Assembly (NCBI GenBank): GCA_034780895.1
Contig: JAUZTB010008443.1
Location: 62,001-124,625 of the forward strand
Reading direction: 5' to 3'
Length of the DNA stretch: 62,625 nucleotides
From: Rhynchobatus australiae
Lineage: Eukaryota
Part shown: positions 9,474-59,987 of the stretch, piece by piece
How positions within the stretch are numbered: position 1 is the first letter of the stretch
Layout of the letters: each line of letters starts with the position of its first letter
The notes under the pieces: model-generated
What the model saw: the letters and a program-made list of their open reading frames with translations, nothing else
Database searches by the model: none
Told to the model about the DNA's origin: nothing
Made by a program: the position numbers and the translations under genes

Positions 9474-9550
9474 TGGCGATCACGAGAGGATTCGAACCTC
9501 TGACCACAAGCTTAGAAGGCTCGTGCTCTATCCTGCTGAGCTACGCGACC
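9474..9550 (-). tRNA. tRNA-Arg(UCU)
   Basis: GGTCGCGTAGCTCAGCAGGATAGAGCACGAGCCTTCTAAGCTTGTGGTCAGAGGTTCGAATCCTCTCGTGATCGCCA: cloverleaf, TCT anticodon, TTCGAA T-loop, encoded CCA. Confidence 0.97.
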
Positions 9551-9614
9551 ACGCTTTATAATTTTAGCTTAAATTTTATTATCAGCTATTTTTTTTCATG
9601 AGTCTACACAAAAT

Positions 9615-9697
9615 TAAACCTACAGACATGTCACTTCTCAATTTGGCTGCTTCATTTCTGCCCTGACCAGGTTATGAGGTTTACATTCTATAGGCCT
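9615..9697 (-). ncRNA. ffs: Signal recognition particle RNA (4.5S/scRNA)
   Basis: Domain IV-like GGTCAGGGCAGAAATGAAGCAGCC; ends pair (AGGCCTATAGA/TCTGTAGGTTT); extended -10 TGTTATAAT at 9702-9710. Confidence 0.9.
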
Positions 9698-9739
9698 ATC
9701 AATTATAACAATAACTTTAAGATAAAGTAAAATAATAAC

Positions 9740-22226: not shown

Positions 22227-22970
22227 ATGGTGAAAGAAAAAATGAAGTTTGGTTACACTAATGAATCTTACAAAGAAGACGGTAAATTCGTGCAATATAA
22301 GCGTTTTAACCCTTTTAATCACAAAATTGATTATCAAGTCCTTAATGTTTTTGATTATGTTCCTAACTTACTTTTTAATAGTCACGAAAAAATTGTTTGG
22401 GAGTTCATTGAAGGCCAAATTCCTTTAATGAATGAAGCTAATTTACAAACGATAGCGCAATATTTAGCGCAGTTACACAATACTAAAATTAAATTTCCTA
22501 ATTTTAATTTGCGTCATCGTTTGCAATATTATCGCAAAGTAATTCATGATAAAAATTTAAAAATTGACACTTTGGATAAGTACTATCGCAAAATTAATAA
22601 AATTTTAAAAATGATGGATAAAAACACACCGATTCATTGTGATCTTTTTGGTTTTAATTTTATTTTGGATAAAAATGAAAAAATTTGAATCGTTGATTGA
22701 GAATACGCCACTATGGGTGATAAACATTTCGATTTAGCTTATTTTGTTGAAGGCAATAAACTTAATGAAGAGCAAGAAAACGTCTTTTTAGAAGCTTATG
22801 GTGATTATGATTATGTAAAATTTTTAAACCAAAAAATTTTAGTTAATTATTATGTCATTTGTTGGGTAAATTCCCAAAAGGAAAAATATTTTGATGATTT
22901 CATTTACAGACAAAGGGTAGCTGAATTAGAAAAAATTTTGCATCAGTATAAACTAAAATGAAAATTGTAA
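22227..22970 (+). CDS. licA: Choline/ethanolamine kinase-family phosphotransferase (LicA-like)
   Basis: GYTN N-lobe, WEFIEG, Brenner motif IHCDL..FN, IVDWEYATMGDKHFDLA. Confidence 0.8.
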
Positions 22971-22976: not shown

Positions 22977-25028
22977 TTAAAAAAGATATTTTCTTAAAGC
23001 ATCACGCGTTGCCTTTAATAAACAATTGACAATACTGAGTTTTTCATAATCTTTAAGATTGTTTAAAAAACTTAAATAAAGTTGGTGTAAATAGTGTGGA
23101 TTGTTTAAAGAGACAAAAAAACGAATTAAGTTTCTTTCGAGTGTTATTTTGGTATTTTTGTGTAAACTAGCTAGCTTAATGAGGGCGTAAATTTCTTTAC
23201 TAATAAGACCAATTAGAACATCACGATGCGGTGAGTGAAAAGAAGCTTCGAAAAACGTTTTCATTAACTTTTTATGAATTTGTTGATTACGTTCAACTAG
23301 TTTAATAAACATTTGGCGAATGTTGCCAGCGTCTAAATAATCATTAGGAAACGCAAAAATATCGGCACTAACTTTTTCTAAATAGTCATTAATTTCGTTT
23401 TTAGCAATTAACTCTTGGAGCAGTTCTAAAACTGCATGTTTTGTAATTGTGCTTTTACGTTTAAACAAAATGCGGTTTACAAAAAAGGCGTTAAGCTCTT
23501 TTTTCTTTAATAAAAGCGCTATTAATTTTAAAAGTTGTTGACCTAAAAAAAGTGGATATTTTTGCGTTAATAAAATTAAACTTTTTAATAAATCTAAGTA
23601 ATTATTTCTATCATAAAAGTGTTTTTCAGCAATTTTTAAAATTTTGTGTAGATCAAAAACAAAACCTAAAATTTTAGTGTCTTGATCGTCTTCTCTTTGA
23701 ATTTTAACAATCATTTTTTGTAAAAAATAACTATTTACAAAGTAACTATATAAATCTTCAAGTAACTGTCCTTTTTGATAATCCTTAAAGTCTTTAAAAA
23801 GAGTGTTTAGTTGAGAATCAAAAAAGGTATGATTTTCTAAGTATTGACTAACGATATTAAGAAAGCGTTTTTTTCAAGAAAAAAGCAAAAATGTCGTTTT
23901 TTGAAGGTAATTATGGTACTGAAAATAGTCTAAATAATAGTTGATGCGTTTTTCTTGATTGATAAGCCTTTGCGTATAATTTTGGTTCTTAATTCATCAA
24001 TTATAAAGTTCTTCTTTAGTGAAATTAATTAATTTTTGTGAAGAGCTATTTTTATTAGTTTCATCATTGTATCAGTTGTTTAAATTACGCTTTGAAATTT
24101 TATTGTTAAGGCTTTTTACTGGAGCTAAAATATTAGTCGTTTCGATCAGTAAATTAAAAGCTATTTTTTTATGTCCTAATGCACTTGGGTGAATATCAAA
24201 GATGTTTTTGGCAAAATGATGTCCTTGTCAAATTCATTCGTTTTTTTGGTAAATGTTTATAAATTTACCTAAGCCGTTTTTCACTACTGTATCTTTAATC
24301 AAATTGTTTAGTGAACTAATTAAAACATTACTTAAAGAGTAATCATTGGCAGCACTTTGGTTTTGAAATAAATTTAATAAATCCGGCAACTCTAAATATT
24401 CAAAATTATTAAAAAATTTTTTTGCTAACTGATCGATTGCCATGGAAAGACGCAAAAGGGGCAAAGGATAATCTAGATAATAAACTTTCGCTTTTTGATT
24501 TTCTTTTTTTAATAATTGCGAAAAAATAACTAAATTTTGAGCTATTTCTTGATACGTTTTTTTTATTAAAACTTTTAGTTTTGCAAAAAAATCACTATAC
24601 GATTTTTTCGAAGCTAAAAATATTTGCGGTAAAAATTCAAAAAAGGCTTCTAGATAATCATTGGCTCCTAATGAAACAGTAATGATATTAGCACTTTTTA
24701 GAGCAACTAAGAAATTTTGTAAATGGCTTTCAAATTGACTATTTCACTGACTTTTAAAAAAAGCGCTCTGCTTTGTTTTTAGTAATGCAATTCAATCACT
24801 AAGCTTTGATCCTGAAAGAGCAAAATTATCAAAAGTAGTTATAATTTGTTGATTAATTTCTTGCACAAAATGGACAAAAAAAGCAGGATAAGAAACGCCC
24901 GATAAATAATTAAGTTGGGGTACAGTTTCATCAAAATATTTGCCTTTTAAATCTTTTGCTAATTTAATATTAAAACCAGCCGCTAAAGAATCGCCGAGCG
25001 CTAAATAACGCAATTTAGTTTTCTCCAT
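22977..25028 (-). CDS. SGNH/GDSL-family lipase/esterase, 683 aa, no signal peptide
   Basis: YLALGDSLAAGF (block I), NFALSG (II), SLGAND (III), FDIHPS (V); helical C-terminal extension. Confidence 0.85.
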
Positions 25029-25062
25029 TGTATCTTTTCATTAGTAATAAGTAGCAAAATTA

Positions 25063-25098
25063 TAAATAAAAAAGTGTTAATTAACACTTTTTTATTTA
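25063..25098. terminator. Perfect palindrome/terminator between the two lipase genes
   Basis: TAAATAAAAAAGTGTTAA|TTAACACTTTTTTATTTA. Confidence 0.75.
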
Positions 25099-25107
25099 TT
25101 TTAAAAC

Positions 25108-28100
25108 TTAATTATAATCGTATTCGCGACGTGCTTTTTTAGCGTATCCTTTTTTGAGTCAGTTCATTATATTATTAACAAGATCACTCTGTTTTACGCC
25201 TTTAGTATAAGCTCTTTCTTCTTCAGCAACGTAAAAGATAGTAATTAAAGGGTTATTATTATGGTAATTAGCTACCGATCTGTCGAATCAATATCAAGGA
25301 TTAGTAATTGGTTTTCCTACTAAAAAGTCACTAAAAGTTTTATGAGTTTTAATGTTTCATGTTTGTTTAATTTCAGGATTAGCATCATAAAATTCTTGTG
25401 CTGCATTTAAAACGCCTTCAGCTCATCAAGGAGAAATTTTGAAAAAGGCTCCTCATAAATATCCTGATCCAATGTTTTGACGGAAAAATAGTTGCATCAA
25501 GATATTAAATCTAAACATTCCTTTATAAGCTTGAGAATATTCAATTTTAGTTTCTGGGTGCCTTTTTACTTCAGCTAAAATAGCTTTCATAAAGCTATCA
25601 GCAAAAGCTTTAGATAAATTTTTAATGAAATGGTAAACATTGGCAAAAGCGCCTGAGAAAATAGCATCGTGCACATCAACACTTACACTCGTTGCACTAT
25701 TAGCGTTTGGAGCTTCACTTTGATTGTTTTTTAGCGCTTCAGGTAGAGCATAAGCTGGTAATAAATTGTGATAAATAATTTTGTAAATACCGTCTTTTCT
25801 TTGAAAATCACTTTTATCAAAAAGTAGATTAATAAAATCAGCCAAGGCTTTACCAAAACCTTCTGCTTGCGTAAAAGTTTGAATTTCAGGTAAAAGATTA
25901 ATTATTTTGGAAAGTTGAATTTGGTTGTAATTGTTAAAGGCTAAACTTTTTAAAGTGTCTAAAATAGTATTTAAAAGTTTTTGCGAAGCTTCTTGATTGA
26001 GCGCATCAATTGTACGTAAGCCATTTAAAACGCCGTCTACTAAAGTGTCGAAAATTTTGGTAGCTGAAGGTAATTGGCGTAAAACAATAGCAAAAAACGG
26101 CGCATAGCGCGAAGCATCTGCTTCTGTAATGCCTAAATTAGTGTTTTTTAGTAATGGCGTTGTGATCATCTTAATGAGTGTTTCAAAATCGGCACTGTCT
26201 TGTTTTAAAACGAATTTCATTAAGTTTTTTAAAGCGTTGCGAAAACGATTGTTATTTTGATCGGCTAATTGATGTAAAGCTTTTAACAATAAATCATCAA
26301 AACTAGTGCTACGAGCAATTAAGGCACGATTTTTATTTACAATAAATAAATCAAAAATGGTAATAAAAAGTTCATGCGCTTCATTAGAATCAGCAATAAT
26401 ATCAGTTACCGATCTTAAAGCATCAACGTTAATCTCTTCAGTTTCTAAAGCTAGTTTTAAAACCGAAGCTAAGAAATGACTATCTTTAATAGTAACGCGA
26501 ATTAAGTCTCAAAGTTTTTCTTTAAACTGATTTATAAAATTTTGATTGTTTAATAAATTAGAACTGCTAATCGCTTTAACGAGTTCTAAAAGACCTTCTT
26601 TAGAACTAATGACACTAAAAATTTGATCAAAACTAAAACCTTTAATGGTGCTTTGGCTTTCGCTTTGATTATTAATATTATTATGAACTAAAGTGATAAT
26701 ACTACTAATATAGTTTGATTGTGAAATGATTCTAAAAAAACTAGGCAAGATCGCTTTAGCTTTTTTAATCATTTCTTGACTTAAAACGATGTTTTTACTG
26801 TTTAAATAAAGACTTAGTTGTGTTAAGCTAAAATCAATTAAAAATTTATTATTTGAAGAAGAAGCAATAGTGGCAAAAAGGTGTTTGGCAAAAGTATTAA
26901 TAATAGCTTTATTTTCAAATAAAATTTTTCTAAAAAGACTGTTAAGATTATTAATTTGCGAAAAGTCGATTTGCGTTTCAACAACACTATTTACAAGTCT
27001 ATTTACAAAATCGCTAAAATAATTTTGTGAAGTAACTTCAGTAACTAAATTATTAAACTGTCTTTTGTCTTCGCTATTAGCTAAAAAATTATTATCAAGT
27101 GCTGAGCTTAAAAGCGGACTAATTATTGCACCCTTACTTATCGTTTTAATGATGCCTTTTAGGGCTAATTTAGTCGCTTGTTTATCTTCAGTATTTAAAC
27201 TTTGAAAAGTTGCTAAAGTTGCTTTAATTAAATTAAAAGGATCAAGATTTTGACTAAAAGTGCTTAGCAATTGTTGTTGATTTAAATTTTCGTTTTGCGC
27301 TAAAGGTTCTAAATAAGCAGCTACTAAATCGATAATTGCTTCTAAGACTTTTTGGTTATTAATTTTTGATGCTAAAACGGTTAAGTTTTGTGCTAAACTA
27401 TCAACTTCACTTTGCGCTAAAGTAACTTCTATTTTGCTTAATAAAAGGGGAATCGTTTTTTTCACTAAACTTAATAAATGAGTATTTGTAAAAAGGTTAC
27501 TTTCAGTGAGGGTCGTTTTAATTAAAGCAGCGACTTTAGTTTTAGAACTTTTAATAAAGTTAACTAAAGCAGCAAAAATTGATTGCGCGTCTACTTCATT
27601 TTGACTTTGCACAAACTCTTTAAAAATGCTAATTATTTGTGGAAAGTCTAAATCGTTTAAAACAGTTTTTAAAAGTTCTTTAAAATCAGAATCTAAGTTG
27701 CTAAATTCTGCACCTAAAGTAAAATTATTTAAAACTAAATTTTGTAGACTAGGAGCTTTTGCCAAAGTGCCTATGACAAGACTTAAATTGTCCAAAAAGT
27801 CTTGATTATTTAAAAGTCGATTTATGCCTGGATCATTAATAAAACTGTTAATTAAATGTCAAATAATAGCAATTTCGGAATTGGCTTCAATTTTTAAAAC
27901 TTTTTTAATTTGTGATAAAGACAAAGCCTCGATATCTAAAAGATGATCCATTGCTAAGTGGATTATTTTTTCTAAAAAAGGACTTGAATTTAAAGTTTTA
28001 GCAAAATCATGAATTAAGGCTTTAGTGGCCTTTTTAAACTTAGCGCTAGCTTCATCGTTTAAATCTAAATCTTTTAAAAAGTTGGCCACAAAAAGATTCG

Positions 28101-31100
28101 TTAAAGGATCTAAAATAGTTGTTAATTGGTTATTATTACTAATTTCTTGGATTAAGTTAATGATCGTTGCTTTGGAAGCTTTGAAGAGCGTTTTAATTAA
28201 TGCAGGAAAGTTTTGAGCTTCTTTTAGAGTATCAAAATTAAGATCAAAAGCATCAATAATTTGCTTTATAAAAGTGTTTAAATTAGGAAGATTAAAAATG
28301 AAATCAACAATTTTATTAAGATCAGAAGCGAGCGAAGAATCAGCCACAATTAAGTTTCTTAAAGCGTCTTTAAGAAACTTTTGAGCGCTTTGATCATGAA
28401 AAAGTTTTTCTACAACTTTGGCAACAATTTTTAATAGTTTGTTTCTCTTTTGGGGATTGTTTAAAAGTTGAGAATCATTTAAAAGACTGTGTAAGAGACT
28501 AAAAATATCTTCACTATTTAAATTAATATTAATGACATTTAAATTAGTAAAATCAAGATTAGTTACTAAATCACTAATGATTTTTTGGAAGCTCTTTTGA
28601 GTGCTTAAAGTTCTTAAACTTTCATGTACAAACTGCTTAACTAAAGCGTTTTCTTCTAAACTTAATTGTAAGTTTAACTTACTAAAAATAAAAGGTATAA
28701 AACGATTCAAAGCAGCTTCGAAGCGAGCATTTTGACTTAAGCTTAAACTTTGAAAAAGAGTTTCAACAAAGCTTACAATTGCTTCTTGATTATTAATTAA
28801 AAGCGTTTTGAGAAAAAGCTGGAAAGAATCTTTTTCTAAGTAAAGTTCCTTATTACTAAAAAGATTACTAATGATACTATCAACTAAGTTAGCACTTTGT
28901 AAAGAACTGAAAATGGAAGCGAATATTTCAGGCAACGCTGAAGCTTTAAGATCTTGGGCTTCTAGAGGAAGAGCCTGAGCTACTAGTTCACCAATCAAAT
29001 CAGATCTTAAAAGTGCTTTGATAACTATTTTAAAATCGTTTTCATTTTTTTCTGTAATTAAATTGTTTAATAAAGGTTTTACAAAAAGATAAATACTATC
29101 GAGCTGCTCAGCAAAGGGTGCCTCGGAATTATAATTAGGCACTAGAGCTTTTAAAATTTCTTGAAGTAATTCTTGGAAATTAAAACTTTGATGAGCTTCT
29201 AAATAGTCTAAAGAAGTATTGATGATTTTGTCAAGATTAGCTTCACTTAAAAGCATTTGTGAATTATTAAAAACTAAGTTTAGAGCTGAACTAAAAAATT
29301 GGGGATCAAAACTTTGAGTTAAATTAGTGTTTTCTAAGAAAGCCTTAAGAATTAATTTAAAGTCTTCTTTATTTTCCTTTTTAAATAAAGTTAGAACTAA
29401 GTTTTTGAGAAAAGCGCCAAGAGGTTCTTTAGTTTCAATAACTAATTTTTGTAAGGCTTGTATAACGTTTGGCGCTTCTAAAATTAAATCTAATTTATCA
29501 ATTAGTTTAAAACTGAAACTTTTTAAATTTTCTACAAGTTGTGATTCATTAACTAAAGCTCTTAATAAGCTTTGTAATTTTTGATTAAGCTCTTCATTAA
29601 AACTAGCAATTTCTAAATTATTAATTAAGCCATTAAGCGAATTAGTGCTCAAAAGATCGTTAATTATGATTTTTAAATTATTAATGGTTGCTTCTTCTTT
29701 TAGAAAGTTTTTAAGAGCAGGATTTTTTAATAATTCAAAAAATTTGTTTAATGAAGCTAGACCTTGCTCTTCAAATTTTTGAGCACTAGGTAAACCTAAA
29801 AGTTGACTTACAAGATTTTGCTCAGAATCGATATTAGCCAAATTAACTAAGAATAAATCATAAACTTGGTCAATAAAGGAATCATCAGTTAGTACAGAAA
29901 CTAAGCCTTGAATAAGTTTTTGTAGTGCTTTTTGACTTTGAGGACTAAAGTTTTGCACTAAAGGCATCAGTTTTAAACTTATTTGTTGACTAATAATTTT
30001 GAGAATTGTGCTGTGCGCTGGATCATCGTTTAATTTTTTAAATAAGTATTTTAAATATGTAACTATTACTTCTTTAGAATTAGTTAAAACTGTGACTAAA
30101 AGTTGATTAGCACTTTTGGTTTCACTAATGGCATTTAAATTATTGAAAAAAATGTCAATCATGTTACTGACGAAAAGACTAGTTTCTTCAGTGCTTGTTA
30201 AACTTTGAATAAAATTTGCTAAATTTTCTTGATCTTGTTCATCAAGATTTAATTTTAAAGTGCGATTTAAAAGATTTGTAGCCCAAGCACCAATTTCATT
30301 ATTGCTTAGAATAATTTGAATCGTTTTTTTTAATAAATTTTTGTAATTTTCTTTTTTTTCTTGATCTTGAAAATAGGAATGAGAACTAAAATATTTTAAA
30401 AGCGGCAATAAATCGTCTTTTAAAAAACGATTTATAAAAAGATTAATATTGAAACTATTAATTAAAGTTTCTGAATTAGCTTCTGGCTCTAACGTTTTTA
30501 ATAAAGTTTTTAAAACACGATTAATTACTTTAGCGTCATTAAAAATTTTTAAGTTTTCTAAAACGAAACTTTTTAAGGTAGCAATTTGCTCTTCGTTTAA
30601 TGACAAATTGTATTTTTGATTTAAAACTTTAATTCCCGAAATTAAAACTTTTTTAACTTGCGGTTCTTGATTTTTTAAAAGATCGGAAAAGATGTCACTA
30701 AGAAGTTCTGAAATAATTTCTTGATTATTTTTTAAAAAGGCAGTAAGTAGTGAACTTAAAGAATCAATTTGTAAATAATTTTCACGGTTTTTAACTAAAT
30801 CATCAAAAAGAGCACCGACAAATTTACCTACTTTTGAAGTTAAATTGTATTTTTCGATAATTTCACTAAGGTTTTTGGCAAGTTCTTCGCTTGGCCCTGA
30901 ACCTGCAAAAATTGGTGTAATTAAAGAGCGTAAAGCTTCATTATTAATTAAGCTTTCCACTAAAGGTACAAAAACAGCTTTTAATTCTTTTGCTTTTTCT
31001 TTATTTTTAATAAACTCAGAATTTAAAAACGCTTTCAATAAAGGAATGTAACGATCGTAATTTGATAAAGCTTTTTTTAATGAGCCTAAAAGTAAGTCTT

Positions 31101-32700
31101 TAGAAATTGGCGTTTTTTTGTCTAAAGTAGTAGCATCTACTTCTTTTTGAACATCGTTTATTAAATCAACAAAGAAATCACTTTCAACGATTGGATTAAT
31201 TAATAAAGTTAAATTTTGAGCATCATCTTTTAAAAGAAAATCAACGAAATTACGCATTTCATCGGAACTTGAAAAAGTTTCGTTATTTTTCAAAAATTCA
31301 AGCCCAAAACGTAAGTAAGTTTTATTAATAAGAGCGTTTAAAACACGTCTGCTAAAGTGATTAACATTAAAAAGGTGACTATATTTTTGAATGCGAGCTT
31401 CAGCTAATAAATCACGATTGTGATCAAGACCTAAAATTTGATTAGTAATGCTATTTTCTTCTACATCTTCAAAAACAATTTTCTTTTTCGCAGATAAAAA
31501 ATCGCTTGCTGTAAAGGCTTTGTCCCAATCACTATTTAATTTTTCTAGTTCTTGGCTATTGTAATTAGTTCGATTAATAGTGAGCTTCAGAAAAACTTCT
31601 TGAGCCATTTTTTTATAACCGTGTTCACTAGGGTGAATGTCAAAAATGGCATCACTTAAATAGTTAGCGTCTTCGCCTCAAGTACGTTTATTGAAAACGT
31701 TAATGTATTGCATATTATCATCAGAAGTCATTAACGATTTAGCAATTCCGTTTAAACTATCTAATAAAAATTCGCTTAGCGTTCCTGTTCCTAAACTTAA
31801 ATTTGCCGTTAAATTATCAATTAAGTTTTTCAGTCTTAGTAAAGGCATTGGATAAGAAACAAAATTGATTGTTACTTTTGGGTTTACTTTACGAATATTT
31901 TTAATTAATTTTTGATAACGTTTATTTATTTCGCTAGAAATATTTGAGAGTAAAGAGCTAGCAAATTCGATGAGCTCACGGGTACTATTTTCTGGGGCGT
32001 TTAATTTCTTAATTAATTCATTAAAATCGAAGCCATTTAAAAGTAGTTCAATAAAATCATTAGCACCTAAAGAAATAGTTAAAAGATTAGCATCAGCTAA
32101 TCTAGCTAAAAAGTCTTTTCGTTTAGCTTCATAATCGTCTTTTCAAAAAATTCTTAAGCCTGCTTCGTTACTATTTTCAAAAAGCTGATTTCACTGTTTC
32201 GTAGTTGAGCTAGTAATTCCAAAATTCTTATAAGCAGCTAAACGATTAGCTTCAATTTCGTTAATAAACTGGGCAATAAAGGAAGGATAAGAAAGGCCAG
32301 TAATGGTTTTTTGATCATTATCTACAGTTAACTCTCCAGGATAATCTTTTGCTAATTTAGAATTAAAACCAGCTACGATTGAATCGCCAAAGGCTAAATA
32401 TTTAATATCGTCTGTAATTAATGTTTCATCAATTGATTTATCAATTGGTACTTCATTATCGTTTTGATTAGTATTTTGGTTATTGCTATTATTAGTATTA
32501 TTGTTATTTGCAGAAGCATCTTGCCCAGAATTATTATTTGCTGCGGCATTTTCATCTGTACTCGCATTAGGCGTATCAACTGATTTTACGCGTCTGTTAC
32601 TATCGGTATTAGCAACATAAATGCCAACACCGACTGCTGCCGAAGTTGTAACAACGCCAGCAGTACCGAGTAAAATCTTTAATTTTTTACTAATTTTCAT
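25108..32700 (-). CDS. Giant surface SGNH/GDSL lipase with a helical repeat region, 2530 aa
   Basis: N-terminal signal/anchor without a lipobox Cys, Asn-rich linker, YLAFGDSIVAGF, SLGAND, FDIHPSEHGY; four ORF-track pieces share one frame. Confidence 0.85.
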
Positions 32701-32870
32701 AATTACCTGCTTTAGTTACTTTGTTAATAATATTATTAAATTGCGAAGTAGTGCTTCTTGATTCATGAGAACGGAAATTATTATAATTAATAATAAAAAA
32801 TCTTGCTAATAATTTTTGGGTTTTGCTTTTTTTATTGCAAAAGTCCTAATTAGTTTTTTTTATTAGATTT

Positions 32871-33209
32871 TTAATCTTGTGCAAGGGCACATTGGCAATA
32901 AAGATCGCGATAATCGTTAATTTCTAAAATTGAATCAAGTAAATGTGAATACGTTTGGCGTACAAAGGGAGCAATTTCGTAATGACGGTTACGATTTTCT
33001 TTGGAAAAAGAAACAATCCCACTGCGACGCAAAGACATTAAATGTTTACTAATATTGCTTTGCGTTGCCATTTGTTGTGCTACTAAAAAATTGACGTTGC
33101 ATTTACCACAAATGCAACTGTAAAGATGAATAATTAAATTCAACTTTTTTTCTGAAGCGAGCGCTTTTAGAAAAACTTCTAAAGAAACGACCTTACCATC
33201 CATATTCAT
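32871..33209 (-). CDS. ArsR/SmtB-family transcriptional regulator (likely start 33203)
   Basis: FLKALASEKKLNLI, TQSNISKHLMSLRRSGIV, RHYEI winged HTH; CICGKC and CQC clusters. Confidence 0.85.
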   Translation of the reverse strand: MNMDGKVVSLEVFLKALASEKKLNLIIHLYSCICGKCNVNFLVAQQMATQSNISKHLMSLRRSGIVSFSKENRNRHYEIAPFVRQTYSHLLDSILEINDYRDLYCQCALAQD

Positions 33210-33340
33210 ATTATATAGTTTAAATATTTATTCCTTAAATAAGAAAAGTGTTCGATTTTTAGCTTTTAAATTTAATTTTTTCAAAAATGTGAAAATAAAT
33301 AAAAAAATCACTTTTTTATTAAAGTTAATTTTTTTAAGTT

Positions 33341-36280
33341 TTAAGCACTTTGTTCATTAGCAACTAATTCTTTAGCATCTTCTAATTTAAGCGTGAAAAA
33401 AGAGGAAACGCCTCGTTTTTGCATGGTTACGCCAATTAGCTGATCAACGCGGCTCATTGTCCCATGACGGTGGGTAATTATTAAAAATTGCGTTTTATTT
33501 TTTAACTCTTGTAAGTATTCAGCATAACGAATGACATTAGTTTCATCCAAAGCGGCTTCCACTTCATCAAGTATACACAAAGCTAGAGGACGTGCTTTTA
33601 AAATAGCAAAGAGTAAAGAAATAGCAATGAGACTTTTTTCGCCGCCAGAAAAAAGTTTTAAGTTCTTAACGGTTTTACCTGGGGGCTGAGCCAAAATTTC
33701 GACTCCTGAATTTAAAATATCATTTTCATCAATGAATTTAGTCGTGGCAGCACCGCCACCAAACATCTTTTTAAAAACTAAATTGAATTCATGACTAATT
33801 TCTTCCATGATTTTACTCATGCGTTCAATAATATTTTTATCAAGTGCCATAATTGCGCTTTCAAATTTTAGTTTTGTTTCAGTAATTTCGGCTTCGGTTT
33901 CTTTGTATTCATTATAACGTTCAGAAATTTCTTCAAAACTTTGAATCGCTTCGAGATCAATATTACCGAGTTTTTTGATTTCGTTACTAAGTTCTGAAAC
34001 AATTGCTTCTGCTTCTTCTTCAGGCAGCTTCAGTTTGTAAGTTTCAGAAGCTAACTCTAAAGTCATATGGTAAAACTCGCTTAAGCGTTTGTGATTATTT
34101 TCAATGATGAAATGGGCGCGATCACGATCACGAATTACTTTGGCAAAGGCGTTATTTAAATTTCTCAATGATTTTTCAAGTTCTAATTTCTCATTACTTA
34201 AACGGTTGTAATCAAGGTTTAAATTTGCAACTCTTTCAGCTTTTGCGCGCTTATCAACACTTAAAAAAATTTGTTTTGCTTCTAAGTTATTTTTTTGTGT
34301 TACTAAGCTTTGATCTTCGTCTTTTAAAGTTAAATCAAGCTTAGAAATAGTTTCAAATTCAGCGCTTAGTTTCTGGAAACTGATTTCATCATTTTCGCAA
34401 TTAGTAGCTATTTTGGTTTTTTCAATAGTGAGCTCAGAAATAGCAGAAATTAAATTTTGTCGTTGTGCTTCTTTAACTAAAATTTGGTTGTTAAGACGTT
34501 GTCGATTTTCTTCTAAAGTAGGAATAATAGTTTGCAGTTTTTGAATTTGTTTTTCAAGGCCAATAAAGTTAGTCACAACTTGTGAGGTGCCACCAGTAAT
34601 AACGCCACCTGCTTTAATGATATCGCCATCTAAAGTAGCAATGACATATCGGTGTTTTAAGAAGCTATCAAGAGTTTTGGCAACGTCTATATCTTCGACT
34701 ACTAAAATATTTCCTAAAAGTGCCTTTTTAAAGATTTCAAATTTTGGTTCAACCGAAACTAGATCAGCAGCAATCCCTACTAATCCAGGATGACCCGAGA
34801 TTGCAATTTGATGTTCTTTTGGTATGCTTCGAGGACGGATTGATTGTAAGGGAATGAAAGTGGCGCGACCACCGTTATTTTGCTTCAAAAATTTAATGGC
34901 TTTAGTCGCAACTGATGAATTATCAACGACTATGTGTTGTAAAGCGTTTGCTAAAATAGTCTCAATGGCTACTGCATATTCCTCAGCAATAGTTAAAATA
35001 TCGAGCACTAAACCGTGCACCCCTTTAAATAAAGATTTATGGTCTAATATTGTTTTTACACCTTTAAAAACGTTAGTACGATTTTCAAGATGATCTTTTA
35101 AAATGGAGATCTTTGTACTAGTTTGATTAATTCTTTTAGTTTCTTTATTAGCTTCAATTCTTAACTCATTAATAGCTTTTTCTAAAACACTAATTTGTGA
35201 ACGCGTTAAGTTTAGTTTTGCTTCAAAAGATTGGTTTTGTTCTTGGTAAAAATTAATACGTGTTTTAAGAGCGTGTAACTGCGCTTTGACTGCTTCTTTT
35301 TTTTCTTCTGTAGAAGCTTTTAGTTCACCGCTAATAATTAATTCGCGTCTTTGTTCTTCGCGACTTACAATATTTTTTAAATTAATTAAGTCCTTATTAA
35401 TTAAATCTAATTCTTGATTAATTTTTAAGATTTGATTTTCATTTTGAAGACGTTCATGAATAGTATTTTTGATTTCATTTTCAGTTTTAAAAATATTTTC
35501 TTCTAAACTTTCTTTAGTTTCTTGAACGCCTTCTAATTTTGCTTCTAAATTAACTAGTTCTTCTTTAAAGAAAGTTAATTTATAAACTAAAAGACCAATT
35601 TCTATTTCCTTTAATTGTTTACTTTTACTAAGGTAAATTTTGGCTTTTTCAGCCTTCTTTTTTAAAGGTTCCAATTGCTTTTCTAGCTCTTTAATAACGA
35701 TGCGAATTTGTTCTAAATAAGTTTGTGTGTTTTCTAATTTTCTTTGAGTATCAATTTTACGGAATTTGTATTTACTAACTCCAGCCGCTTCTTCAAAAAT
35801 TAATCGTCTTGATTCAGGTGATGCTTGAGCAATATCAGAAATTGTCCCTTGAGAAATAATGGCTAAGGACGATTTGGAAATTCCGGATTCAAAAACAAGC
35901 GCTTTGATATCTTTAAAACGCACGATTTGATCGTTAATATAATAATTATTTTTGGCCCCACCGCGAAATAATTCGCGCGTAATTTTGATTGTATCTTGAG
36001 GAATAGAAACGCTGCGATCGCGATTATCAAAAGTTAAAGTGACAATCGCTTTATTTAAAGGCTTAACGTTTTTAGATCCTGAAAAAATAACATCCTCCAT
36101 AGAATCACCGCGTAAAGATTTGCTTGATTGTTCGCCTAAAACCCATTTAATAGCATCATTAATATTACTTTTACCAGAACCATTAGGACCGACAACACCG
36201 ACAAGTTCACCGCTAAAATGTAAATGCACTGGATCGGCAAAAGATTTAAAACCATGGGCAAAAATTTTTGTTAATTTCAA
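33341..36280 (-). CDS. smc: Chromosome segregation protein SMC (P115-like)
   Basis: GFKSF, GPNGSGKSN, hinge GRATFIPL, SGGEK signature, ILDEVEAALD, ITHR; TTG start with SD GTAGGA. Confidence 0.96.
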   Translation of the reverse strand: MKLTKIFAHGFKSFADPVHLHFSGELVGVVGPNGSGKSNINDAIKWVLGEQSSKSLRGDSMEDVIFSGSKNVKPLNKAIVTLTFDNRDRSVSIPQDTIKITRELFRGGAKNNYYINDQIVRFKDIKALVFESGISKSSLAIISQGTISDIAQASPESRRLIFEEAAGVSKYKFRKIDTQRKLENTQTYLEQIRIVIKELEKQLEPLKKKAEKAKIYLSKSKQLKEIEIGLLVYKLTFFKEELVNLEAKLEGVQETKESLEENIFKTENEIKNTIHERLQNENQILKINQELDLINKDLINLKNIVSREEQRRELIISGELKASTEEKKEAVKAQLHALKTRINFYQEQNQSFEAKLNLTRSQISVLEKAINELRIEANKETKRINQTSTKISILKDHLENRTNVFKGVKTILDHKSLFKGVHGLVLDILTIAEEYAVAIETILANALQHIVVDNSSVATKAIKFLKQNNGGRATFIPLQSIRPRSIPKEHQIAISGHPGLVGIAADLVSVEPKFEIFKKALLGNILVVEDIDVAKTLDSFLKHRYVIATLDGDIIKAGGVITGGTSQVVTNFIGLEKQIQKLQTIIPTLEENRQRLNNQILVKEAQRQNLISAISELTIEKTKIATNCENDEISFQKLSAEFETISKLDLTLKDEDQSLVTQKNNLEAKQIFLSVDKRAKAERVANLNLDYNRLSNEKLELEKSLRNLNNAFAKVIRDRDRAHFIIENNHKRLSEFYHMTLELASETYKLKLPEEEAEAIVSELSNEIKKLGNIDLEAIQSFEEISERYNEYKETEAEITETKLKFESAIMALDKNIIERMSKIMEEISHEFNLVFKKMFGGGAATTKFIDENDILNSGVEILAQPPGKTVKNLKLFSGGEKSLIAISLLFAILKARPLALCILDEVEAALDETNVIRYAEYLQELKNKTQFLIITHRHGTMSRVDQLIGVTMQKRGVSSFFTLKLEDAKELVANEQSA

Positions 36281-39746: not shown

Positions 39747-41648
39747 TTGAAAAAGAAACACGTTTTAAAAATTTTGCTTATTAGTTTACCTTTTATTGCC
39801 TTGGCAACGACAATGGCTGTAGCTTTAAAGATCACTAAAGACAATCAAAGTCAAGAGCTTAATCTTAAATTTGCACTTAAAGAAAATGTTATTGAAGGAG
39901 ATATTAAATATTTAGCTTTTGGTGATTCACTAAGCGCTGGTTTTAATTCGCAATTGGATAAAGACTACCCTGGTAAGCTCGAAGCAGACGGTACTATTTC
40001 GGGCCTTTCTTTTCCAGCTTATATCGCTCAATATTTACAAACTTTAAGCACTAAACGTTTTACTAGTTTTGATAATTTAGCACGATCAGGAAGCACGCTC
40101 AGTGAGTGGAACAGTCTTTTTTCTTTAGCCCTTCCTTCGTGGCAAAAACACTTTCCTAATTCAGAAGCTATCGCAGCTTTTCAAAAGCTTTTTTTAGAGA
40201 AGTTAAAAAATGCTAATTTAGTAACTATTTCTTTAGGCGCTAATGATTTGCTTGCGTCTGTTTTAAAAGAATCTACTTTGTTGAAACTAATTCAGGGTAA
40301 TTTCGGTGATACTGATTTTTTACAAAAACAATTTAACTTTATAAGGCAAGATTTAAGCAATAAAATTCGTGCCTTAGTAAATAACATTTTATCCATTAAT
40401 AAAGATGTTAGAATTAACTTTATTTCTTATCCACCACCATTTTTGCGTTTGCAAAACGCCTTCAGTGATCTCCTTTCAATGAACGGAGAGAGAAAGATAA
40501 ATCCTATCAATACGCTATTATCGTTACTAAATCGGACCCTAAAAAGCGCAAGTGATAGTTTTAAATCTAACTATGTTAATTACATTAATGCTTATGATAA
40601 ACGTTGATGAGAAAATAATTCTGCCTTTGCTAGCAAAGCCCTTTTTGATATTCATCCAACTGAGCATGGTTATAAAAAAATGGCTCAAGACATTATTTTA
40701 AAATTAATTACAAATAAGCAAATGGAAAATTTTTCTTTAGATACTTTACGTTCTATAAACGGCAATTTAACTTGAGATGATAATTATTTTAAAAGCGATT
40801 TATTTTCTGTGGGACAGCAAATTAAAATTGCAGAAAACGATTCATTAAATGAGCAATATCGCAGTGTTCTAAACGTTGCAAATAGTAATGCGCCAAACAT
40901 TTTAGTTCGTGAAAAAAGAATCCGCTTTTATGAAGATAAATTTAATTTTAATAATCTTCAAAAAAGATTCTTTGATAATAATTCTGATTCTAATTTTGAA
41001 CGTTTTATCGGTGGCTTCTTTTTATCACAAATTGAAAAATTTTTAGAGGCTAATTTAAATAATTCCGCAAAGCTTACCATTCCTAATCAAGATCTTCTTT
41101 TAAAAGCAATTTTAAAACACAAACTAATACCTAGCCTTTTAGTTAAAATTCAAAATCTAGTCGATCAAAAATATACTCATGAATTAAATAAACAAATAAG
41201 TTTAACTAATTTAAAATCAGCATTTCGCAATGCGCTTCTTGATAAAAAGATTTTATTTAAATTTATGCAAAGCTTTTTTAGCGATAATCGCACTTTTATT
41301 GATCCTCTTTTTAGAACTAAGTTGGCTCAAGCCTTAAGTAATTTTATTATTTCCAATTTATCAACTTTGGAAACATCCTTAGAGTTTCGTGAAGAGCAAT
41401 TAGGACAAAAGTTTATGATGCTTAAAAAGTTTCTTAAAAAACTCCCCCAAGCTAAGGCAGCGCTTGTTAAGTTCATTGAATTTCTTTTAGTTAATATTTC
41501 TAGTTATGTGATCGAAAGTAGTGATTTATACGATATTTTAATCCGTTTTTTTTCTGATTCTTTAACACTAAATAAATTTTTAGAAAGTGTTTTAGCAAAT
41601 CAAAGTGAGACTCTAAAAAAAGAATTTCGTGCATTATTTCTTAATTAG
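39747..41648 (+). CDS. Membrane-anchored SGNH/GDSL lipase, 633 aa
   Basis: Signal/TM segment, YLAFGDSLSAGFNSQLDKDYPG, NLARSG, SLGAND, FDIHPTEHGY; paralogue of 25108-32700; TTG start with SD AGGAAGG. Confidence 0.88.
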
Positions 41649-43374: not shown

Positions 43375-44343
43375 ATGAATTTAATCCCATGAAACGGCGG
43401 GAATTTGGCATTTGGTGATCTTCACGCCTCCACAATCTTAATGTCATTTGGCCTTTTAGGCATTGTCATTTTAGTATTTTTATCTTTTTTTAGTAATCAA
43501 ATACGTTCTCGCTATTCTCTTTTTTTAGAATTACCTGCGCATCGTTTAAAAATGCGTTTGCTTGCTATGAGCTGAGCTTTAACACTATCCTTAATGTTTA
43601 TTGTACGTCTTGTTATTTTTGCAAGACCAGCTTCTGATGCCAAGACTATCTATCCGTATCTTTGAGAACTAATCCCCTTGCATTTCACGCGTTTATCATT
43701 AGTAATTAATATTGTCATCCTTTTCTTACCTTTTAAACTTCAAAAACGAGCCATTCTTTATTATGGATTTTTTTCTTTAATAACAGGAGCTTTAGCATTT
43801 TTTAGCCCCGATCTTAATGGTGGTCTTGAGCGCTATCGAACTAGCGTTAATTGAGGTTATGACTCTTTTGTTTACTGAGATTATATTTCCGTGCATTTTT
43901 CTAATATTGTAATTCCTTGATTAATTTTTATTCTTTATCGCCCCTTATACACTTTTAAAAAATTAATGGTTTCTATTAGCATAATCGTTGTTTACATGTT
44001 TTTAGTTTTTTTTCTAAATTTAGCTCTAGACAAAGTTAACTCTACTTTTTGAAGAGCTAATTGAGGTTATTTAGCTTCTGATCAAGCTAATCCTTATTTG
44101 AAGAATTTAGTTCCACCTTTTACCAAATTTCCTCAACACGTTTTCGTTTTCTCAATTGCTTTTTCCTTAGTACAAATGTTTTCCACAATAGTTTATATTT
44201 ACTCTGAGTCCTTAACTTTAGAAATGCATCACTGACGTTTACAACTAGTTCGTCACAAAAGCAAAATGTGTACTTATTTTGTTCATAGCATTCCTGAACG
44301 AATTAAAAATTTACTTTTAAAATTTTCTTTTCGTAAAAAATAA
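43375..44343 (+). CDS. YwaF/TMEM164-like polytopic membrane protein, 322 aa (not in the ORF track)
   Basis: Multiple TM segments; WELIPLHFTRL, FVYWDYISVH, ANWGYL motifs; many in-frame TGA. Confidence 0.75.
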
Positions 44344-45404: not shown

Positions 45405-46916
45405 TTAGGCCACGCCTAAATAAATGAAAAGCAAAATTGTAACACTATAAAAAATTGCTGTAGCAATACCATCAGTTAAAGTCGTTAATAGAGGCGTTGA
45501 TAAAACGGTTGGATCTTTTTTTAATTTAATTGCTAAGAGTGGAATTAAAGCTCCTATTAGTTTTGCTCAAATAATTACTAACCATAGTGAAAAACTAGAA
45601 CCAAGAATTAAAATGTAAACATTAGCGCTCTTTGCAGAAGCTAAAGAACCATCAAGAGCATAATAAATTAATAAACGCAGCGTATTGATAACAAATAAAA
45701 TAAGGCCAATAAAAAAGGCAACACTAATTTCACGAAAAATAATTTTCTTAAAAGGATAATTTTCAAATTCACCTAAGGCGGCAGCTCTTATGATTGTTGA
45801 AGAAGACTGTGAGCCAGCATTTCCGGCGGCACCGGAAATGACTGGTACTAAAGTCGTTAAGAGTAAAACATTAATAAAAGTTTGAATATTTTTATCTGCT
45901 AAAGTAGTAAAACTTTGGATAATGATCTGACTAATGGTTGAACCAATTAACAAAAAAACTAACCAAAATAGTCTACTTTTTACTAATTTTTGTACCGGCG
46001 TTTGCGTATATGCTGTAGTATCTTTTTTTTGAATCCCGGCTGCTTTATAAAAATCTTCCGTAGCTTCTTCATTAATAATATCAATAACTTGATCGGTAGT
46101 AATAATGCCAGCTAGTTCTTGATTATGATTTATCACTGGCAAAACTGAAAGATCTTGTTTGGCAAATAAATTAATTGCTTTTTGAGCATCATCATCAGTT
46201 TTAATAGCTTCTAAAGAAAACATGATTTCTTTAATTTTAAGTTCAGCTTGATTAAAAGCAATGTCTTCTAAACGTGTTGCACCTTTAAAGATGCCACGAT
46301 CATCGGATACAAAAAAGTAATGTGTTAATAAGGAATTTTCTTCTCAGTCTTGACTAATTGTTTTTAAGGCTTGGGCCAAAGTTGAATTTTCATTTAAGGT
46401 GCCAAAATCAGGACTCATGAAACTACCTATTTGATTATCATCAAAAGTTAATAAATAACGAATCTCAGAATTACGTTTTTGATCTTTAATTAAAGATAAA
46501 AACTCTTCTTGTTCTTGACTATTTCAATGACAAATGAGCTTTTTAATTTCACTACTCATAAGATTGTTAGCAATTTCAAATTTTAAATCTTGAGTTAAAT
46601 AATCTAGTAAATAATTTTGTTGCCCAAGCTCTAAAGTAGCAAAAAATTCAGAATTAATTTCATTATCTAAATATCTTAAAATTTGCACTTGTTGATTAAT
46701 TTTCAAATTATTAAAAATGTTTTTTAATGTAATTAAAGAAAGCTTTTGAGCCAGTTTTTGTAGCATTCAATAATTATTAGTCTTAAGATAATTTTTAATT
46801 TCTACAGTTCAATAAATTTCTTGTTCTTTTTCATCAGAACGATCATCAAAATATCGATTTTGATAATCTGCTTGTGAAAGCTTGTGATAGTTTTTTGCTT
46901 CTTTTTGTGGCATCAT
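45405..46916 (-). CDS. mgtE: Magnesium transporter MgtE, copy 2 (503 aa)
   Basis: N domain and CBS pair (DLSVLPVINHNQELAGIITTD), EEATEDF, GNAGSQSS, KDPTVLSTPLLTTLTD; SD AAAGGG. Confidence 0.9.
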
Positions 46917-46926
46917 AATCCCTTTC

Positions 46927-48438
46927 TTATTGAACTCCTAAGACTCTAAAAACACCTATGGCGATTGCAAAAAAAATCATTATCGAAAGGGCATCTAATA
47001 ATGTGGTTAGTAATGAAGCCGATAAAACAGCAGGATCTTTTTTTAATTTATAAGCTCATAAAGGAATAATTATTCCTAAAATTTTTGATAAAGTAATTGT
47101 TATTCATAAAGCTAAGGAAGAAGCAAAAATTAAAATTATGATGTTTTGTGGATTTACAATTAAAGATTGTTCAATGGAAAAATAAATTATTAAGCGTAAA
47201 AAATTAACAAAAAACAAAATCATTCCTAAAATTAATCCGGTGTACATTTCCTTGCGAATAAACTTGGCAAATTTTTGTTGGTTAAATTCGCCTAAGGCGG
47301 CAGCTCTAATGACAGCCGAGCTTGATTGGCCGCCAGCATTACCGGCAGCATCGGAAAGAACCGGAATTAAAGTCGAAAGAATCGAAGTTGAAATAAAAGT
47401 AGAAATTGTTTGGCTGGCCACATTAGTTAAAGTTTGCAAGGCAATTTGTGAAAAAGTGGCGCTAATTAAAAGTAAAAAAAGCCACACTAAACGGCTGCGA
47501 ATTAATTGTAAAATCGGTGTTTTGGTGTAAGCTTGTAAATTATTAGTAGTAATTGCGACTTGGCGATAAATGTCTTCGGTAACTTCTTCATGAATTAAAT
47601 CAACCATGTCTTCAGCAGTAACAATGCCAGCTAAATAGTTACTATGATTGATCACTGGTAAAACCGAAATGTCTTGTTTGGCAAAAATTTGTGCCGCATA
47701 CTGAAGATCATCATAAGTTTTTACAGCACTAACTTGGAAAGCAATCTCAGAAACTTTTTTAGTTGGGTCATTAAAAATAATGTCTTCAAAAGAAATAGCA
47801 CCTTCAAAAACACCTTCTTGATTAGTAACAAAAAAGTAGTGGTTTAAACTAATTTTTTCTTTTCAGTCGTTTTTAATGCGTGCCTTTGCATCAGCTAAAG
47901 TTCAGTTACTTATTACCGAAGAAAAATCAACACGCATTAAACTGCCAATTTGATTTTCATCAAATTTTAAAAGGGCATTAATTGCTCTTCTTTTTTTAGG
48001 ATCCTTAATTTTTTTTAATAAAGGATGCATCACTTCGGTTGGCATTTCATCAATTAAGTCTTTAATTTCATCACTTTTTAGTGATTTTATAATTTTGGTA
48101 CTTAAATCATCACTAAAAGAAGTTAATAATTCGGCTTTTTCTTGGGCATCTAAATCATTAAAAAAGATCGCAGCTTGCGATTTAGTTAAGAGACGAAAAA
48201 ATAAAATTTTTTCAAAATTACTTAAATGAATAAATTGTTCTAATAAAATCGTTTTTGGATAATCTTTAATAATTTTTTGTAATTGTGAAAAATTACTATT
48301 TTTAATGTTAATTTTAATTGCCTTTAAAACTTCCGGGTGTTGCGTCGGCATTATTGTTTTGAAACTATAAAAACGTTGCCAAAATTTTTTTTTAGCTCCT
48401 TTTGGCATATCGAAAAGAGAATTATTATTATTTTCCAT
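46927..48438 (-). CDS. mgtE: Magnesium transporter MgtE, copy 1 (503 aa)
   Basis: N domain and CBS pair (DISVLPVINHSNYLAGIVTAED), EEVTEDI, GNAGGQSS, KDPAVLSASLLTTLLD. Confidence 0.9.
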
Positions 48439-57122: not shown

Positions 57123-57144
57123 TTATTAAAAGAAAGAATTGATA

Positions 57145-58290
57145 ATGAATATTGTCTCAACAATAAAAGCGCTTATGGATAAAAAGCAAACTTTAAAATG
57201 AGCTTTTTTAGGTGATAGTATTACTCACGGGTTAGTCCACACTCATAATAAAAATTCTTATAGCGAATACTTTGAATGTTTCATCAAAACCAATCTTAAA
57301 AGAACAAATGATACTATCGTTAATTTTGGAGTTTCAGGAGAAACTACAAAATGGTTAAATCTTTATCTAGATGAAATTAGTGACCATTTTGATATTTATT
57401 TTATTGCATTTGGAATGAATGATGCCGCATCATTTTCTGGCCTAAGTGCTGATGCTTTTTATGCTAATTTAGCGCAAGCCATTCGTAAATTAAAAGCAGT
57501 TAATAAAATCATTATTTTACAAAGTGTGAATCAACTTTGTCAAAGTTACGGCATTGATCCTTGAAGACAAGATCTTAATAAGTATTATCAAAAAATTAAA
57601 CTTTTAGCTAAAGAAGAAAATCTTTTTTATTTTGATTTAGAAGCGCAAATTAGTAATAAATATTTACGAACTTACCAAGTTGAAGAACTTTTTGCTGATA
57701 CTATTCATCCTAATGAAAAAATGCATCTGTTATGATTTTTAGATCTTGTTATTTTTCTTTTTGGTAACTCTTATAGGAATTTATTAATTGAGCAAAAAAG
57801 GTCTCCAGTTTGTGAAAACAACTTAGTATATTTACGTTCTGATAAAGACTTAAAAAAGATTAAAGATTTAAAGACCCCTTTTTATTTTTTCTTTTGAAAT
57901 TTTGATTTTTGTGAAATTGATAAATTACATTATCAAAGAAATTTTCTCTATCATTTTAAAGAGCTTTTTCATAGTCAATTATCTTTTGAAATAAAAAATT
58001 TATTAAAATATTTTATCAGTCTTAAATCATTAAATAACCCTTTTAAAAAACTTCTTAATAATAATTATTTAGAGTTTTATCTTTTTGAAAATGAGAACCA
58101 TTTAAAGACTTTTCAAAAAGACGAAATTACTAATAAGCATAAAGTTTATATTTTTAAAAAAGGACTTTTTGAAAAGATTAGTTCTGATCTTTTGAAAAGC
58201 GATTTTGCCAATTTATTAATTTTTGAAAAGAAAATAAATTGGAGCAATTCAAGAAATTCGGCTCAACAGTTATTAAGACTTTTTCACTAA
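57145..58290 (+). CDS. Cytoplasmic SGNH/GDSL esterase, 381 aa (not in the ORF track)
   Basis: WAFLGDSITHG, NFGVSG, FGMND, DTIHPN; additional C-terminal domain of about 170 aa. Confidence 0.85.
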
Positions 58291-58550
58291 GTAATTAATA
58301 GTTATGATTTTTTGATCTTCAATTTAGCGTATTCTTATTTTTTTTAGAATAACTTGATTTTATTATCAAGAATCAAAACAAAAGAAGTTTTTTTAAAAAA
58401 GGTCTTAAGCTTAGTAAAAAAAGCTTCAATATACTTAGACATATTATTTTGAGAGACGTAATTTAATTTAAATTAAATTGAATGTACTAACTTAATTTAA
58501 ATTAATCAAAAAAAGATATCAAATTGATTCAAAAAAAAATTTTATTTTTT

Positions 58551-58579
58551 TTGAATTGATAATAATTTTATGCTATTAT
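58551..58579 (+). promoter_or_regulatory. Sigma70-type promoter
   Basis: TTGAAT-N17-TATTAT with extended -10 TG at 58571-58572. Confidence 0.6.
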
Positions 58580-58584
58580 TTGGG

Positions 58585-59982: not shown

Positions 59983-59987
59983 ATAGT

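Follow-up and report, generated by a model that had tools for sequence, protein, structure and literature searches.

A 2530-residue mycoplasma protein likely related to MilA, with eight diverged repeats between a lipase-family domain and a conserved cap

We analyzed a 62,625-nucleotide window of DNA and, within it, a mycoplasma gene at positions 25108..32700 of the minus strand, a MilA-type SGNH/GDSL lipase gene by its single intact open reading frame and its Pfam content. Under translation table 4, the gene is one frame of 2530 amino acids with 12 TGA codons read as Trp and zero in-frame TAA or TAG codons, in agreement with the initial annotation, which had taken the gene to be unsplit. From the N terminus, the product carries a hydrophobic anchor, the lipase-family (SGNH/GDSL) domain (residues 101–369), eight strongly diverged repeats (543–2243) and, at its end, a conserved cap rich in Trp and Tyr. 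The N-terminal hydrophobic segment (residues 9–27; 32620..32676, minus strand) is the only hydropathy peak above 1.5 and likely a signal or membrane anchor; Cys is absent from all 2530 residues, and the protein thus has no lipobox. An Asn-rich low-complexity linker is seen in the sequence at about residues 45–83 (32452..32568, minus strand), and a helical connector, predicted by the model and conserved in the family alignment, leads from the lipase to the first repeat (residues 370–542; 31075..31593, minus strand). Just 3′ of the stop codon lies a 17-pair hairpin (25062..25099), likely a terminator, with a folding energy of −15.8 kcal/mol (z −5.3) matched by 0 of 200 shuffles. A promoter scan of 32600–33400 gave no signal (6 sites vs. 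4.1 expected), and NCBIfam assigned no family to the protein.

The window also holds shorter paralogues. The adjacent one, of 683 residues (22977..25028, minus strand), has an SGNH domain by Pfam and one weak repeat unit by HMM, without the N-terminal anchor and without the cap; its single unit scored 27 bits and only 4.5 bits by an independent HMM. The other, of 633 residues (39747..41648, plus strand), shows a hydrophobic N terminus, an SGNH domain and the connector by Pfam and alignment, with no full unit or cap detected, and is 33% identical to the 2530-residue protein over 504 residues. A fusion of the short paralogues to an acyltransferase was considered and rejected, no such extra Pfam domain being found in 10 proteins.

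The SGNH/GDSL hydrolase domain (31594..32400, minus strand) was recognized by Pfam, fold match and alignment columns. PF00657 matched residues 101–369 with an E-value of 2.7e-12 and 47.7 bits (cut-off 23.6), and SGNH enzymes took up the match lists when the N-terminal model was compared with known folds, the domain model matching 7e16 with Z 19.4 and rmsd 3.2 over 206 aligned residues. Besides the SGNH fold, the domain has S107 in the G-D-S of block I, N214 in block III and D354 and H356 in block V; S107, N214 and H356 were invariant in 27 of 27 aligned family sequences and D354 was present in 26. The oxyanion-hole Gly of block II is absent and Ser164 stands in its place (Gly in 20 and Ser in 2 of the 27 aligned), which reads as a substitution inside an otherwise complete SGNH domain. 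The catalytic Asp lies two, not three, residues ahead of the His, a D-x-H-P spacing shared by 92 of 110 family clusters, with D-x-x-H-P in 0 of 110. Given the block II Ser and the Asp–His spacing, lipase activity of this copy is putative.

Profile HMMs placed eight repeat units on the minus strand: unit 1 at residues 543–754 (30439..31074), unit 2 at 756–969 (29794..30435), unit 3, the weakest, at 975–1179 (29164..29778), unit 4 at 1195–1397 (28510..29118), unit 5, with a weak DUF445 match, at 1391–1602 (27895..28530), unit 6 at 1605–1812 (27265..27888), unit 7 at 1813–2028 (26617..27264) and unit 8 at 2029–2243 (25972..26616). The initial annotation had described a degenerate motif recurring after the lipase domain; all eight quoted copies were found, their ends spaced by 216, 215, 214, 205, 210, 211 and 210 residues. 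The eighth copy had been quoted shorter than the others. No repeat had been thought evident at the DNA level, and tandem- and direct-repeat searches indeed yielded none at the unit period: all 12 tandem rows had periods of 13 or less, and the direct repeats (20 of 38 families listed) were all 49 nt or shorter, none at ~630-nt spacing.

Pairwise identity among the eight units averages 17% (12–25%), and what is conserved among them is the hydrophobic pattern, not specific residues. Self-BLASTP of the protein gave zero off-diagonal matches and lag 216 ranked merely third among the autocorrelation peaks, both methods being too weak for so diverged a repeat. With leave-one-out HMMs, the units scored 14.3–72.3 bits, every unit above all its 200 shuffles, while the top shuffle reached 8.1 and the top reversed unit 6.6. 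We also used an independent HMM built from 242 of 277 homologue units, excluding the protein itself and its three closest relatives, with unit borders originally seeded from the 2530-residue query. It placed exactly 8 full-length tiles on the protein at 12.6–44.4 bits, compared with 4.3 on the reversed protein; among 593 control ORFs, 5 exceeded 10 bits, all fragments of family genes, and the next scored 8.9. The proposed self-similarity at an offset of ~210 residues is thus significant by profile tests, though invisible to self-BLASTP, and the presence of eight ~211-residue repeats at residues 543–2243 is confirmed. Sixty of the 211 unit-profile columns are >75% hydrophobic, with i/i+3/i+4 spacing, and Ile, Leu, Val and Phe make up 37% of the repeat region vs. 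29% of the globular lipase domain. Together with the AlphaFold models, the spacing supports the predicted helical, amphipathic nature of the repeats that had been suggested from the letters.

Confident models of residues 95–985 (pLDDT 81.7, pTM 0.71) and 1605–2530 (pLDDT 75.7, pTM 0.59) predict the repeats to be all-helical and packed against a folded lipase, with 12 predicted helices in unit 1. Searches with the 926-residue model of repeats and cap returned nothing above background: the best Foldseek E-value was 0.073, the best match in a wide VIA search was a 2S albumin (Z 6.4 over 59 residues) and a second VIA look reached Z 4.9. No lipid-transfer fold was matched in these fold searches. 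Run against PDB sequences, the unit profile had 11 matches with E-values up to 1, the best two being designed helical proteins and read as generic, and P116 was absent from the matches listed in the fold and sequence searches. The lack of a clear PDB match for the predicted repeat and cap structure does not prove a new fold.

Each ~211-residue unit appears to be built of two ~105-residue halves. In unit 1, the similar halves aligned at 91–93% by HHalign vs. 29–35% for a reversed half, but such scores are partly generic, since a unit aligned to its reversed self still gives 76%. A ~312-residue period of three half-units was found in three of the four proteins examined for period. At the C terminus, the conserved helical cap (residues 2244–2530; 25111..25971, minus strand) was delimited by model, composition and family profile. 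As originally noted, it is rich in aromatic residues, with 2.4% Trp and 5.6% Tyr vs. 0.2% and 1.2% in the repeats, and 7 of the protein's 14 Trp fall within the last 115 residues. Of 144 long family entries, 47 went undetected by the cap profile.

The family is widespread and the gene unremarkable within it: clustering at 80% identity gave 110 clusters with the lipase-repeat design, from Mycoplasmopsis, Metamycoplasma, Mesomycoplasma and Ureaplasma. Copy number across relatives, which had been put forward for checking, ranged from 1 to 17 unit-profile matches per protein among the 66 cap-bearing clusters, with lipase and cap fixed at opposite ends. No lipid gene was a conserved neighbor across 39 loci, and a conserved neighborhood including the nearby choline-kinase-like gene was rejected, as none was kept beyond close clades. 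The M. adleri protein was also considered for an additional lipase domain, which was rejected, the part examined holding only a stray motif.

The protein is likely related to MilA (MBOVPG45_0710, ADR24994.1), a surface protein of the cattle pathogen M. bovis for which surface exposure and lipase activity are reported in the literature. A review describes MilA as 2670 residues long with a transmembrane segment at 7–29, a lipase and several DUF445 copies (PMC9630594), and a GDSL motif is said to be common to milA homologues in many mycoplasmas (PMC7954426). By these accounts, the 2530-residue protein resembles MilA in size class, in the anchor without a lipobox and in the N-terminal GDSL lipase motif, and its eight helical repeats after the lipase may correspond to the multiple DUF445 copies of MilA. 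MilA is further described as processed into 226 and 50 kDa pieces, with ATPase activity and heparin binding. MilA itself was not among the homologue matches and no protein named M. bovis was among those listed, so membership in the MilA family is argued from architecture and from the M. primatum homologue. The M. primatum lineage is closest to M. bovis. This homologue (P0124, 2743 residues) has lipase, repeats and cap, is only 27% identical to our protein over 758 residues, and shows an out-of-step block pattern as in the ~312-residue class, unlike the eight regular two-half units here. The initial annotation had pointed instead to lipases of the p65 type. The p65 lipoprotein of Mesomycoplasma hyopneumoniae is also described as a surface lipolytic enzyme, but our protein lacks Cys and a lipobox and has eight repeats and a cap; the assignment was not borne out and MilA is the closer model, which means that the lipase and repeats design was already described. 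The short paralogues in the window presumably resemble p65 in size class.

DUF445 (PF04286) weakly matched 17 of 58 family units at raw E up to 0.1 (best 3.1e-5), any other family matching at most 3, and one of five window units scanned; the whole protein had no match at E up to 0.1, and PF04286 was precomputed on 7 of 95 homologues. The top three matches of an Atlas feature search with a one-unit homologue were DUF445 clusters (0.87–0.88), taken as leads only, and a search with units 1–4 was uninformative (best 0.81). Among unit-profile matches that did not look mycoplasmal, P0169 and P0180 above the cut-off and P0188 and P0196 below it carried DUF445. The repeats are thus alike to the DUF445/GerD-core-like kinked amphipathic helix proteins by weak, recurring profile matches, but DUF445 spans just part of the unit.

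Mycoplasmas depend on the host for lipids, and to our knowledge the uptake route is structurally known for P116 alone. With moderate confidence, we read this lipase-family protein, with its eight diverged repeats and conserved cap, as a likely membrane-anchored surface protein of the MilA family and a likely scavenger of host lipid. In this reading, the cap, aromatic and farthest from the anchor, would touch host membranes or lipoproteins; lipid would be kept in the predicted amphipathic helical repeats and handed inward along them to the lipase domain beside the anchor, which would cleave or trans-acylate it for the mycoplasma's membrane. By analogy, the repeats likely bind host lipid, as MilA is reported to bind ANS, lipids and heparin (PMC9630594) and its fragments, per reviews, ANS and lipids (PMC9630594, PMC9051441); they may also deliver it to the membrane of the mycoplasma. 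About 70 residues separate the lipase from the anchor, and the repeats lie beyond the lipase; with the lipase at the anchored end and a conserved cap at the far end, lipid would run from cap to lipase. The earlier suggestion that the repeats bind or channel lipid released by the lipase is therefore plausible for binding, given the MilA precedent, but probably wrong in direction, as repeats lying beyond the lipase would feed it or the membrane. Lipid binding by the repeats of this protein, a continuous lipid path through them and this direction are points that we only infer. P116 of Mycoplasma pneumoniae captures lipid with amphipathic helices lining a large cavity (PMC10023570) and would likely do the same job, but it is a non-repetitive dimer with a β-sheet palm, whereas our protein is repetitive.

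A doubtful alternative is that the repeats are a variable-length helical spacer between the cell surface and an adhesive or membrane-binding cap, lipid binding being incidental to amphipathic helices. The 1–17 range in unit number, the absence of a lipid-transfer fold among the matches, and the heparin binding of MilA fragments and the adhesin role discussed for it (PMC9630594) agree with such a stalk. Low-identity units keeping only the hydrophobic pattern are equally explained by a plain stalk. A surface stalk, however, does not need a lipase at its base, and the lipid binding of MilA regions in reviews and the hydrophobic excess of the repeats over the lipase domain also count against it. 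That the C-terminal part uses ATP to drive self-export or transport, with the repeats as its passenger, we consider very improbable: for MilA, ATP binding and hydrolysis are reported and self-transport is suggested in a review (PMC9630594), but our protein lacks a Walker A pattern, which was found within the C-terminal 450 residues in just 4 of 144 long entries, and the cap is modeled as helices with no match to a nucleotide-binding fold.

We judge it improbable that each unit is, as in the insect MA domain (Bla g 1, PF06757; PDB 4JRB, 6XRX), a closed capsule of two halves, with the string of beads storing lipid for the lipase. The insect domain has tandem ~200-residue units of two ~100-residue amphipathic helical halves and binds lipid, as is likely by analogy for the mycoplasma repeats; the outline of two six-helix repeats around a 3758 Å³ lipid cavity (PMC6893020) agrees with the 12 predicted helices and similar halves of unit 1, and two insect PF06757 arrays were among 123 unit-profile matches (E 4.2e-23 and 1.3e-18). 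These E-values sum near-identical copies, however, no single copy exceeding 15.8 bits, and that over some 80–100 residues, part of a unit; PF06757 matched 1 of 58 family units (E 0.004), and with an HHalign profile–profile probability of 7% we reduced MA-domain homology to a lead. The partly generic half-to-half scores also weaken the resemblance, and strict pairing is broken by the three-half periods of the mycoplasma family. The MA-domain entries are GFP/MBP fusions, 4JRB being one to GFP, and might escape comparison with a 926-residue model; neither was listed in searches with that model, 4JRB not being among the 50 matches listed per search.

Literature searches, with the primary MilA paper outside their scope and possibly containing part of this, returned no structural account of MilA and no description of the two-half unit, the three-half period or the layout with lipase at the anchor and cap at the far end; relative to the literature searched, these features and the lack of a clear PDB match for the predicted structure are new. 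MilA is a diagnostic antigen and appears essential in M. bovis (PMC9051441). With the exact unit, its half-unit build, the fixed lipase and cap ends and foldable borders, the choice among tube, capsule and stalk becomes directly testable. More tentatively than for lipid scavenging itself, MilA-family proteins might form an all-helical bacterial lipid bridge of new fold, with ~105-residue halves stacked as one adjustable hydrophobic tube, an aromatic cap drawing host lipid and a basal lipase editing it; if true, the family would be the P116 counterpart in these mycoplasma lineages. The ~312-residue period fits such a continuous stack, and three-half periods in one lineage favor it over closed capsules.

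The mycoplasma gene at window positions 25108–32700 (minus strand) is a single ORF of 2,530 aa under translation table 4, uninterrupted by stops, in which 12 TGA codons encode Trp. The only strong hydrophobic segment of the protein is at aa 9–27 and Cys is absent, and the N-terminal anchor is therefore, judging from the sequence, likely a signal or transmembrane helix and not a lipobox. An Asn-rich linker leads from this segment to a GDSL lipase domain (aa 101–369, Pfam), in which the catalytic residues S107, N214, D354, and H356 are conserved and the block II Gly is replaced by Ser. A helical connector precedes eight diverged units of ~211 aa, and the C-terminal 287 aa form a Trp/Tyr-rich cap holding half of the protein's Trp. 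The unbroken gene, the SGNH lipase domain, and the Trp-rich end had all been read correctly in the initial annotation. A hairpin of 17 pairs lies 3′ of the stop codon.

The same annotation had proposed about eight cryptic helical repeats with no trace in the DNA. Its eight quoted motifs were all located, 205–216 residues apart, and DNA repeat searches indeed found none at the unit period. Self-BLASTP of the protein gave no repeat signal, but profile methods recovered the repeats to which it was blind. With leave-one-out HMMs, the units scored 14.3–72.3 bits, each above all 200 of its own shuffles. An independent HMM, built from 242 of 277 homologue units after leaving out the protein and its three closest relatives, though with unit borders originally seeded from the protein itself, tiled the sequence with exactly eight matches (12.6–44.4 bits). 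The reversed protein reached 4.3 bits and the best unrelated ORF 8.9 bits among 593 control ORFs, five of which were family fragments. The units span aa 543–754, 756–969, 975–1179, 1195–1397, 1391–1602, 1605–1812, 1813–2028, and 2029–2243 and share 17% identity. The repeats are thus real, and the design is of a known kind.

AlphaFold models of aa 95–985 (pLDDT 81.7, pTM 0.71; 27 sequences) and aa 1605–2530 (pLDDT 75.7, pTM 0.59; 37 sequences) were confident and predicted the repeats to be entirely helical, as had been proposed; unit 1 comprises 12 helices. The lipase model resembles solved GDSL esterases (7e16, Z 19.4); fold searches with repeats and cap modelled together returned no matches above background. 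The two halves of a unit (~105 aa each) are alike, with HHalign probabilities of 91–93% at three cuts against 29–35% for a reversed half, although the whole unit reaches 76% against its own reverse and the likeness calls for caution. In the mid-arrays of Mycoplasma iners, M. columbina, and M. maculosa, profile positions ~1–150 and ~50–205 alternate with a period of ~312 aa, equal to three halves, in three of the four proteins examined; in the remaining one, a Ureaplasma protein, the units are whole and lie ~290 aa apart. The three-half arrays give independent support for a half-unit build and, because they tolerate odd numbers of halves, would be easier to reconcile with a continuous stack than with a chain of closed pairs.

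These features recall MilA, the giant surface lipase of Mycoplasma bovis. A review (PMC9630594) gives its size as 2,670 aa in a table and 3,670 in the text, and describes a transmembrane segment at 7–29, multiple DUF445 copies, and lipase activity. According to the same source, MilA binds heparin as well as ANS and lipids, hydrolyzes ATP, and is processed into 226- and 50-kDa pieces. Elsewhere it is described as apparently essential (PMC9051441), and milA homologues are known across many mycoplasmas (PMC7954426). DUF445 gave no match on the whole 2,530-aa protein and was the sole Pfam family recurring on units, matching 17 of 58 (best E 3.1e-5). The lipase, repeats, and cap all recur in a 2,743-aa protein of M. 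primatum. On these grounds, the likeness being drawn through the review descriptions and the M. primatum protein, our protein is very probably a member of the MilA family and, by analogy, likely works as MilA does. The literature searched gave no account of how a unit is defined, its build from halves, the range of copy numbers, or the missing fold match; the primary MilA paper (PMC7240078) may contain some of these.

We lean slightly toward the protein being a surface lipid scavenger. Since the anchor would hold the lipase domain near the membrane of the mycoplasma, the repeats would reach beyond it and the aromatic cap would be distal, unless the chain folds back. The cap might then engage host lipid, which the repeats would hold and move inward; at the base, the lipase would cut or trans-acylate it. 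That the repeats form a continuous lipid tube with a new fold is doubtful, and it is similarly doubtful that they serve as a plain stalk or adhesin. Two insect PF06757 (Bla g 1 type MA domain) arrays among 123 unit-profile matches could suggest that the units are capsules of that kind; at no more than 15.8 bits per copy and a profile-profile probability of 7%, the resemblance is reduced to analogy, and such capsules are unlikely. An ATP-driven exporter is highly improbable, with a Walker A pattern in only 4 of 144 long entries.

Relatives of the scavenger candidate were found in Mycoplasmopsis, Metamycoplasma, Mesomycoplasma, Ureaplasma, and related mycoplasmas. One relative search gave 57 loci, of which the 38 from mycoplasmas and ureaplasmas were used and 19 short lipase-only matches left out; the nearest among the relatives compared were M. 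testudineum (27% identity over 1,180 aa) and M. agassizii (26% over 1,567 aa). The 218 lipase-bearing entries formed 110 clusters at 80%. The cap terminates 66 of these, and copy number across them, a check the annotation had suggested, varies from 1 to 17 unit-profile matches, a count exceeding the true unit number in the ~312-aa three-half class. Counting duplicates, the cap profile matched 97 of 144 long entries; the forms from Mesomycoplasma and Ureaplasma, and some from Metamycoplasma, escape it. Gene neighbors showed no conservation across 39 loci.

Several family members are irregular. The gene is present as two ORFs, split inside the repeat array, in M. alligatoris (L015 9998–14707 and 15594–19181) and U. 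miroungigenitalium (L031 10001–16027 and 16014–20051), which may reflect assembly error or a real break. A ~70-residue stretch exactly duplicated within the translated M. hyopharyngis cap (L034 7099–15234) may be an assembly artefact. Paralogues of ~1,100 aa (L003 9971–13213; L012 and L013 9953–13285) have lipase and cap without anchor or detectable units, and 176–197 additional residues C-terminal to the cap. Eight non-lipase proteins (P0169, P0180, P0188, P0190, P0191, P0194, P0196, and P0197) matched the repeat profile at no more than 40 bits per stretch; one of them combines a DUF445-like region with S-layer homology domains.

Three further SGNH/GDSL genes lie within the 62 kb: a 683-aa paralogue without anchor or cap directly downstream of the large gene (22977–25028, minus), a 633-aa paralogue (39747–41648, plus), and a more ordinary 383-aa type (57139–58290, plus; PF13472 E 6.4e-22). 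A choline/ethanolamine-kinase-like gene (22227–22970, plus) is convergent with the 683-aa paralogue and a TMEM164-family membrane protein gene (43375–44343, plus) is near the 633-aa one; neither recurs beside the lipase in the 39-locus comparison. The ~1.7 kb at 58290–59990 (19% G+C) contains no 100-aa ORF and no Rfam match. The window also carries a tandem pair of 503-aa MgtE magnesium transporter genes (45405–48438, minus), a tRNA (9477–9550, minus), and a small SRP RNA (9609–9701, minus).
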